64,000 bases of DNA, taken from NCBI RefSeq assembly GCF_055900595.2, contig NZ_CM148325.1; one strand, given 5' to 3'. Under the pieces are notes generated by a model. It was not told the DNA's origin, ran no database searches, and saw only the letters and a program-made list of their open reading frames with translations. The position numbers and the translations under genes were made by a program. Shown here piece by piece: positions 1,596-4,881 of this stretch (positions are counted from its first letter, which is position 1; each line of letters begins with the position of its first letter).

Positions 1596-3311
1596 TTACT
1601 TCAGCGGCGAACGGTTACGATCAATGCCGTAGCGTTCGATCTCTTTATACGGCACGGTTTTTGACTGGCGCTTGCGCACATCAACCAGCGTCACACGGTC
1701 GGTACAGGAGTAGCAGGGATCAAGGCTACCGATAATCAGCGGTGCGTCAGAAACGGTATTGCCGCGCAGCATGTAACGCAGCACTGGCCAGTTGGCGTAG
1801 GTGGCGGCACGACAGCGCCAGCGGAACAATTTTTGGTTATTACCGAGCATGCTCCAGTGCACGTCTTCACCGCGTGGCGCTTCAACAAAGCCCAGCGCGA
1901 ATGCGTGAGGTTTATAGCTAAAGCCTTCGGTCAGCAGTGGGGTATCCGGCATGTTGTCGAGGGCAAATTCCAGCATTGCCAGCGAATCAAACGTCTCTTT
2001 GACACGGACCATCACGCGGGAGAAGACATCGCCGCCGGTAAAGGTAAACAGCGTTTTTGGAATATTGCCGTAGTCGGCGTAGGGGTGATCAAAGCGCAAA
2101 TCACGGGCAAAACCACTGCCACGGATCAGCGGCCCTACGGGGCTATAATCACGGGCGATTTGTCGGTCGAGAATGCCAATGCCCTGAGTGCGTTGTTCCA
2201 TATTCGGCGTGGCAAGCAGCATCTCTACCAGCTCCGACACGTCGGCGCGCATCTCGCGCACCAGTTTCATCGTTTGCAGACGTTGCTCTTTGAGAATATC
2301 GCGGCGAACACCACCAATCAGATTCAGACCGTAGGTTTTACGCGACCCGGTCAGCAATTCCGCCATCGTCATCGACTTTTCCCGCACGCGGAAAAATTGC
2401 ATAAAACCGGTATCAAAACCAACAAAATGGCAGGAGAGGCCAAGATTGAGCAAATGACTGTGCAGCCGTTCGACTTCCAGCAGAATCGAACGAATGGTAT
2501 GCGCTCGTTGTGGCACCTCAATCCCCAGTGCATTTTCAACCGAGTTGGTATAGGCCACACTGTGGGCAAAACCGCAAATCCCGCACACGCGGTCCGACAA
2601 GAAGGTCACTTCGTTGTAGCCCATCCGCGTTTCTGCCAGTTTCTCCATGCCGCGATGGACATAAAACAGGCGGTAATCAGCATCGACAATTTGCTCGCCA
2701 TCCACAAACAAGCGGAAGTGACCTGGTTCATCGGAGGTGATATGCAGCGGGCCAACAGGGATCACCCGCGCATCGCTGTTGCCCTCGTTGATAAACGGAT
2801 ACGTTTCGGTATCAGTCGTCGGTTCAGGGCGCAGTCGATAATCCATCGCGTCTTTGCGCAGCGGATGCATATCTTCCGGCCAGTCATCGGGCAACACCAG
2901 GCGACGCTGATCCGGCAGGCCAACCGGAATCAGCCCGTACATATCGCGAATTTCTCGCTCGCCCCAGACCGCGGCAGGGACGCGCGGTGTGACTGACGGA
3001 AACTCCCGACTGTCGGCATCGACCAGTGCCTTCACCACGATCCAGCATTTTTCGGCCCCTTCCATTGAAAGGGCATAATAAACCGCGTAATGACCGTTAA
3101 GTGTCCGCTCGTCGTTGCCAAACAGGACCGGAAGCCAGCCATCATGTTGATAATAAAGATAATGTACAACGTCAGGCAGCAGATTTATTTTCACCGTAAT
3201 GGTGACCTGTTCAGGCGTTTGTCGCTCTTCATCCAGCACCGCGCCGGGGAACTGCGTTTTCAGGGCGGCGAGAATCGCTTCGCCACGATTTGACGATGAA
3301 TTAACGTTCAC
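1596..3311 (-). CDS. hyfG: Hydrogenase-4 large [NiFe] catalytic subunit (HycE/NuoD-like)
   Basis: Long ORF with an N-terminal NuoC-like region and the C-terminal Ni-binding motif DPCYSCTDR. Start placed at GTG 3311..3309, which has a GGAGA Shine-Dalgarno 6 nt upstream; the six-frame ORF extends to an ATG at 3356 that lacks an obvious SD. Exact start is uncertain. Confidence 0.88.
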
Positions 3312-4881
3312 TGTGTTTCTCCGAAACAGATGCGGTGCCTGAAGGCAAAAAATCATGCCAGGTGCTACGTTGTGCAGGCAGGTCGTGCGTCCCTGAGAGG
3401 ACTATAGTGGAAGCGCCCGCCAGGATCCTGATGACAGGTTGTGGAATATGCGTTCCCATCGCCAGCATCATGACCAGCAGAATCACCATTGGCGAGGTGG
3501 TCAACCAGCCAAGTTCACCCCGGTTAACGGCCTGCGGCGGTTTCGCCATTAATACCCGCGCAGCCATCCGTACCAGGCCCGCCAGCACCAGCGTTAACAG
3601 CAATAACAGCAGGACGATAATCAACAGGTGATTACGAGCCAGTCCGGCGGTAACGGTCATAAATTCGCTAAGAAAAATGTTGAAGGGCGGCATCCCGGCC
3701 AGCGCCAGCGCACCGCCGCCAAACAGCACGGCGGTAAATGGCATGATTTTGAGCATTCCGCAGACGACGTTGAGATCGCGCGTGCCGTACTTGAGCAGTA
3801 CATTGCCGGAACCGCAGAACAGCAGCGTTTTTGCCAGACTGTGGTTTAAGGTGTGCAGCAGCGCAGCAAAAATTCCCAGCGGCCCGCCAATGCCTAGCGC
3901 CACCGCGACCAGTCCCATGTTCTCCACGCTGGAGTACGCCAGCAGACGCTTAATGTCCCGCTGTACCAGAATGAAAAATGCCGCCACGGCAACCGACAAC
4001 ATGCCGAAGATGAGCAACAACCGGTTGGGGAAATCGCTGCCGATGGCCTGGCAAATAATGATGTAATAGCGAATCAGCACCAACAGCGCGCAGTTCAGCA
4101 ATACGGCGGAGAGCAGGGCGCTGACCGGACTCGGCGCTTCACTGTGAGCATCCGGCAGCCAGGCGTGCATGGGAAATAGCCCGGTTTTGGTGCCAAAGCC
4201 AATTAGCACAAACACAAAGGCCAACAGCATTAATGTTGGGTCAAGCAAGGACGATTGCTTAAGAACCTCGCTCCAGAATATCGCCATTTCTGCCTGCGGC
4301 ATAACGCTGGCGGCGTTGGCGTATACCAGCACGGTACCGAACAGACCAAAAGCGACACCAACAGTACAAATAATGATGTACTTCCATGCAGCTTCCAGAG
4401 ATGAACGCTGACCGTAAATGCCTACCAGAAACGCCGAGCTTAAGGTGGTGGCTTCGATTGCCGCCCACATCACAATCAGGTTATTGCTGGTAACAACCAG
4501 CAGCATGGTGAACAAAAACAGATGGAAGAAACCGTAGTAATCGCACAGCGTAACGGGTGAAAGCTCGCCGTGAGCCACTTCATGACGCATGTAGCCAATC
4601 GAGTAAACACCGGTGAGAAAGCCAATCACACCAAGAATGGCGAGGAACAAACCGCCCAGACCATCAATATGAAGCCACAGTCCCGCAGCGAATATTTCTC
4701 CCGCATCAGCGGCAGTTTGGACCACCCACAGTGCCAGAATCAGCAGCAGTGTGATCCCTAAGCTATGTAGTACTGTCACCGTGCGAGTCGCAGAGTATCC
4801 CCGTTTCCGGCAGGCAAAACAGAGCAGCGAAAAAAGCAGCGGCGTGAGCAGGAGTAAAGCGAACATCACAGAATAACTCAT
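3301..4881 (-). CDS. hyfF: Hydrogenase-4 membrane subunit, NuoL/M/N antiporter-like
   Basis: 526-aa polytopic membrane ORF in hyf order; stop overlaps the proposed hyfG start. Confidence 0.93.

Follow-up and report, generated by a model that had tools for sequence, protein, structure and literature searches.

The hyfG gene of formate hydrogenlyase-2 is most probably translated from a GTG codon within the 3′ end of hyfF

In the 64,000-nt stretch of DNA analyzed here (the window), hyfG is most probably translated from the GUG at position 3311 by means of a Shine-Dalgarno (SD) sequence in the end of hyfF, and its translation is probably coupled to that of hyfF. The in-frame ATG at position 3356, which opens the longest open reading frame (ORF), would be accidental. 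We put the probability of this reading, which is drawn from sequence comparisons, at about 0.92. The anatomy of the GTG start, its conservation in related loci, and its annotation are direct observations. An earlier note on this DNA had called the hyfG start ambiguous and had preferred GTG 3311. The preference is borne out by the conservation of the SD and GTG in a set of 73 loci, by RefSeq, by alignment with HycE, by the content of the protein collections, and by a published statement that hyfG starts with GUG. The word "ambiguous" is too strong, because the ambiguity arises from the longest-ORF rule. The GTG start is already known, because our call matches the current annotation and published statements (the databases and a 2019 paper). 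It matters nonetheless for expression constructs, tagging, and mass spectrometry searches, since it fixes the N terminus of the catalytic subunit of formate hydrogenlyase-2 (FHL-2). A by-product of the analysis, an internal deletion in the hyfG allele of Escherichia coli K-12, is more consequential than confirmation of the start.

Two in-frame start codons at the hyfF-hyfG junction

The features of the junction are listed in Table 1. The longest hyfG ORF extends from 3356 to 1596 on the minus strand, opens with the ATG at 3356 to 3354, and encodes 586 amino acids. The GTG at 3311 to 3309 is in the same frame, 15 codons downstream, so that the choice of start changes the N terminus by 15 residues (586 versus 571 amino acids), as the earlier note had stated. 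The sequence upstream of the hyfG GTG is tCGGAGAaacacaGTG, and it carries GGAGA 6 nt before the GTG, also as claimed. HyfF ends in ...SEKHSER, followed by a TAA stop at 3303 to 3301, which is 8 nt past the start of the hyfG GUG. The two genes thus share the 11 nt that had been reported. ATG 3356 falls within the translated part of hyfF, 53 nt ahead of the hyfF stop.

Table 1. Coordinates of features at and around the hyfF-hyfG junction in the window
Feature	Position	Strand	Remarks
hyfG coding sequence from GTG	1596..3311	minus	571 aa plus stop; hydrogenase-4/FHL-2 [NiFe] large subunit; from ORF, RefSeq annotation, Pfam, and HycE match
GTG, most likely hyfG initiation codon	3309..3311	minus	RefSeq start; GTG at the homologous position in 70/73 hyf loci
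Shine-Dalgarno GGAGA (CGGAGA from 3323)	3318..3322	minus	Within hyfF coding sequence; GGAGA invariant in six-species alignment
Spacer AACACA, 6 nt, between SD and GTG	3312..3317	minus	6-nt spacing in 56/73 loci (automatic start choice)
hyfF/hyfG overlap, 11 nt	3301..3311	minus	From hyfG GTG to hyfF TAA stop (3303-3301)
Upstream in-frame ATG, opens longest ORF (586 aa)	3354..3356	minus	Judged not to be a start; made from hyfF His-Asp codons CAT GAT
hyfF coding sequence	3301..4881	minus	526 aa plus stop; gene immediately upstream of hyfG in the operon
hyfG 48-nt segment (16 residues), deleted in K-12-type allele	2109..2156	minus	Side observation

The overlap had been described as the typical coupling arrangement in this operon. 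The annotated hyf operon is compact throughout. It has 11 junctions, and the description fits the four that overlap (by 1, 11, 4, and 8 nt) but not the other seven, which have gaps of 4 to 29 nt.

The best duplex between the 3′ end of 16S rRNA (anti-SD) and the region before GTG 3311 has an energy of −6.6 kcal/mol at a spacing of 6 nt. ATG 3356 has no anti-SD duplex at a usable spacing, and only −1.5 kcal/mol at zero spacing, in agreement with the claim that the longest ORF begins without a recognizable SD. However, an SD of ≤−6.4 kcal/mol is present 4 to 10 nt before 193 of all 6,199 ATG, GTG, and TTG triplets in the window (3.1%), and because of this chance rate, a lone SD plus GTG site is weak, suggestive evidence; most of the support comes from the comparison with other genomes described below. 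As a start codon, ATG is inherently stronger than GTG. Folding of the mRNA was also considered as a means of choosing between the two sites, and it did not separate them: the predicted local accessibility (unpaired probability) is equal for both hyfG starts (0.44 versus 0.45).

Orthologous loci and existing annotation of the hyfG start

For the orthologue comparison, we used one genome per species, which yielded 80 loci, 73 of them with a HyfF-like gene upstream (hyf type). An SD of ≤−6.4 kcal/mol precedes the start in 73/73 hyf-type loci, all from distinct species, at a spacing of ~6 nt, and such conservation of a predicted SD at orthologous positions is far beyond chance. The consensus is cAGGAGA, ~6 nt, and then GTGA. 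The start codon is GTG in 70 of the 73 loci; the remaining three, two from Pasteurellaceae and one from Formivibrio, have ATG in its place. In 65/71 loci, the position of the hyfF stop with respect to the hyfG start ranges from a 2-nt gap to a 23-nt overlap, and the 11-nt overlap of E. coli recurs in three (in Serratia, Brenneria, and Symbiopectobacterium). Two of the loci (L023 and L071) are Enterobacterales-like hyf loci in assemblies labeled Chryseobacterium sp. 18061 and Desulfovibrio desulfuricans MAG; the labels probably reflect contamination or misbinning rather than the true hosts.

The upstream ATG is not conserved. An in-frame upstream ATG is present in just 10/73 hyf loci, and the positions are unrelated. 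No in-frame start lies upstream of the GTG in Klebsiella indica (L004) or Citrobacter NCU1 (L005), in which HyfG is 91 to 92% identical. A six-species DNA alignment of the closest relatives shows no variation in GGAGA or GTGA, while the column of the E. coli ATG 3356 has AAG in K. indica and GTG in Citrobacter. The part of the HyfF tail whose codons CAT GAT (His-Asp) give rise to this ATG is poorly conserved, and the translated stretch equivalent to the 15-residue extension differs among genera. Within this set of sequences, the upstream ATG is specific to E. coli.

The earlier note had proposed alignment with HycE and HyfG orthologues as a check, and the outcome favors GTG. HyfG matches HycE (PDB chain 7z0s_E) over its full length (E = 7e-292), and HycE residue 4 aligns with the HyfG residue that is number 22 from the ATG and number 7 from the GTG. 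N-terminal length alone does not exclude ATG, because among the orthologues the conserved FP motif lies anywhere from 21 to 36 residues after the start; with ATG 3356 as the start, it would lie 36 residues in, which is within the Yersinia range.

Near the start, K. indica, Citrobacter, Kosakonia, and Phytobacter have 12 nt (TATTTGGACAGC-like, encoding YLDS) after hyfG codon 2 (window ~3304 to 3306). E. coli is without these 12 nt relative to its nearest relatives: VN-YLDS-VN is reduced to VN-VN, the HyfG N terminus is four residues shorter, and the hyfF/hyfG overlap is therefore shortened from 23 to 11 nt.

The RefSeq (PGAP) annotation begins hyfG at the same GTG and shows the 11-nt overlap in three E. 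coli strains. Two of them are K-12 MG1655 and 98206; in the third, the 501-nt hyfF-hyfG junction is identical to that of the window. We found the junction in 4,294 of 5,426 complete E. coli genomes. The remaining 1,132 genomes (~21%) are without that part of the hyf operon. Variation within the species was tried as a criterion for the start and did not discriminate: 85 nt of the junction are ≥99% identical in 4,196 of the 4,294 genomes, and because the E. coli junction is invariant in this sense, intraspecies variation is uninformative on start choice.

The exact 571-residue protein that starts at the GTG was found in five sources (NCBI, Logan, ENA, UniRef, and nr), on 78 contigs, and GTG-start forms of 571 or 555 residues predominate in the public protein collections. 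The exact 586-residue protein that starts at the ATG is a single nr accession, the RefSeq nonredundant entry WP_274619614.1, an outlier annotation compared with thousands of GTG-start entries. When the first 200 residues of the ATG-started protein were used as a query, the matches were mostly fragments, and the top homologues begin at the GTG, because they cover just 93% of the query. NCBIfam has no HyfG-specific model, and no match reached its cutoff, so a model-based start could not be derived from that source. Finney et al. (2019; PMC7384014) state that GUG is the initiation codon of E. coli hyfG. As far as the annotation is concerned, our confirmation of the GTG only validates what exists, and it draws attention to a single outlier RefSeq protein with the ATG start.

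Alternative starts and coupling to hyfF

We searched for N-terminal proteomics or initiation profiling that covers hyfG and found no hyfG entry in the INRI-seq, TRAINSPOTTER, and Ribo-RET material covered here; HyfG is absent from the TRAINSPOTTER N-terminomics supplements. The alternative-start table of the INRI-seq study (Table S3 in PMC9825163) lists hyfD, hyfH, hyfI, and hyfR but not hyfG. The templates of that assay exclude ATG 3356: they carry just 30 nt upstream of the annotated starts, and the assay is therefore blind to an ATG at −45.

These data bear on the possibility that both starts are used, with the 571-residue form as the major product and the 586-residue form as a minor one. 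ATG 3356 and GTG 3311 are in frame with no intervening stop, and initiation-profiling data sets from E. coli often contain alternative in-frame starts (PMC9825163). The absence of hyfG from the alternative sites in Table S3 points the other way, within the limits of an assay that is blind to this ATG, and here again the ATG has neither an SD nor conservation in its favor. We consider dual use very improbable.

It is very improbable that ATG 3356 is the true or main start, which would give a 586-residue HyfG with a 15-residue N-terminal extension. This ATG does open the longest ORF, it is an ATG codon, and WP_274619614.1 is exactly the sequence that it would produce. However, it has no SD, it is not conserved even among the closest genera, and several hyf loci are without any start upstream of the GTG. 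The 15-residue extension has no counterpart in HycE, and the ATG lies within the translated body of hyfF. Initiation further downstream at a noncanonical codon can be dismissed as scarcely credible: near-cognate codons such as ATT 3275 and CTG 3263 do occur in frame, but no SD precedes them, there is no canonical start before codon 24, and the conserved upstream SD and GTG would be left unexplained.

We return, then, to initiation at GUG 3311. A 571-residue HyfG precursor would be made from this codon, with the 30S subunit positioned by the SD that is embedded in the last codons of hyfF, 6 nt upstream. Because the hyfF stop is 8 nt past the start of the GUG, ribosomes that finish hyfF would be released on top of the hyfG initiation region, and translation of hyfG would probably be coupled to that of hyfF by local unfolding and/or reinitiation. 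ATG 3356 would be an accidental in-frame triplet within the hyfF codons CAT GAT, with no significant use. The junction has the two features of a coupled start, namely, an SD 4 to 10 nt before the start codon and a start codon within a few nucleotides of the stop of the upstream gene on the same strand. From these features we infer that GUG is used in vivo and that its use is translationally coupled.

GTG, GGAGA ~6 nt upstream, and A at +4 are kept in ~70/73 hyf loci (L003 to L081), with or without overlap with the hyfF stop. The G of the GTG is not dictated by the overlap with hyfF, because ATGA would be equally serviceable and many loci have the stop upstream (TAAnGTG). Retention of GUG in FHL-2, as opposed to AUG in hycE of FHL-1, would fit with selection for a weak start that depends on coupling. 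We tentatively suggest, although we regard it as rather doubtful, that the weak GUG, the strong GGAGA, and the nearby hyfF stop together form a conserved FHL-2 device that could tie production of the catalytic subunit strictly to hyfF translation and match the amounts of the two proteins. Finney et al. (2019; PMC7384014) went no further than to speculate that enzyme level might be controlled by the GUG of two species. The retention of GUG with a strong SD in ~70/73 FHL-2 loci is only a modest extension of what is already known.

HyfG, its 48-nt segment, and known systems

Judged by its predicted product, the gene is unambiguously hyfG, which encodes the group 4a [NiFe]-hydrogenase large subunit of formate hydrogenlyase-2. 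The translation contains the Pfam domains PF00329 (85 bits), PF00346 (170.5 bits), and PF00374 (54 bits), all above the gathering cutoffs, in an architecture in which an N-terminal NuoC-like domain is fused to a NuoD/large-subunit-like domain. It has both Ni-Fe ligand motifs, RxCGxC near the beginning of the catalytic domain and DPCxxC close to the C terminus (DPCYSCTDR). The cleavage context R*VTLV is of the FHL-2 type and is a HyfG signature (PMC7384014). In the RefSeq annotation of the strain with the identical junction, the gene lies in a hyfABCDEFGHIJ-hyfR-focB operon with the FHL-2-specific membrane genes hyfD, hyfE, and hyfF, and the ORFs in the window fit this layout.

The hyfG of the window is intact and encodes 571 residues, while that of K-12 encodes 555 residues and is without residues 386 to 401. 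In K-12, the 48-nt deletion is flanked by two copies of a 10-nt direct repeat, GCCCGTGATT. The missing 16-residue segment is nearly invariant and is among the most conserved stretches of HyfG in 71 orthologous loci; it is also present in HycE. Without the segment, the PF00346 score falls from 170.5 to 129.6 bits, a decrease of 41 bits. The segment is kept in 2,179 of the 4,292 hyfG-positive complete E. coli genomes, and the remainder look K-12-like. Natural pseudogenization occurs within the hyf operon: hyfJ is annotated as frameshifted (L084:12808-13220) in strain Z0117EC0005, whose hyfF-hyfG junction equals that of the window, and strain 98206 has an annotated frameshift in hyfF, from which 31 nt are missing (L083:220-1769).

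In the parts of the literature covered here, activity of E. coli K-12 hydrogenase 4 is nowhere shown. The enzyme is inactive even after promoter engineering (PMC7654741). Its inactivity has been ascribed, in the portions of the published accounts that we cover, to poor expression, to a missing protease gene, or to "additional, unknown, biosynthetic problems," and the 48-nt hyfG deletion is unmentioned in those portions. Targeted literature searches returned no report of a natural in-frame deletion in hyfG and, on the GTG, nothing relevant beyond PMC7384014; the 1997 hyf paper (PMID 9387241) lay outside the reach of these searches. The deletion could be an unrecognized reason for the inactivity of K-12 hydrogenase 4. 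Every K-12 study of the "silent" hydrogenase 4 was done with an allele whose catalytic domain is missing 16 nearly invariant residues; if the deletion is inactivating, it would help to explain this long-standing puzzle.

The closest known systems are E. coli K-12 hyfG, E. coli HycE, and the FHL-2 hyfG of Pectobacterium atrosepticum. E. coli K-12 hyfG (WP_001102321.1, 555 residues) is annotated identically with respect to the GTG, the GGAGA, and the 11-nt overlap, but the K-12 protein lacks the 16 internal residues that the 571-residue window allele retains. E. coli HycE, the large subunit of FHL-1 (PDB 7z0s, chain E), has the same domain order, and its N terminus is within 3 residues of that of GTG-start HyfG. 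Unlike the hyf loci, hyc-type loci (L078 to L080 and L082) have an ATG start, a weaker SD (−3.7 to −5.9 kcal/mol), and a different upstream gene. The FHL-2 enzyme of P. atrosepticum has been shown to be active (PMC7384014). P. atrosepticum hyfG also starts with GUG, as its authors pointed out (PMC7384014). The two Pectobacterium loci in our comparison (L038 and L041) have CAGGAGA, a 5-nt spacer, and GTG, with a 14-nt overlap with the hyfF stop. Pectobacterium HyfG begins with MTYDNH... and has 7 more residues ahead of the conserved FP motif than the HyfG of the window.
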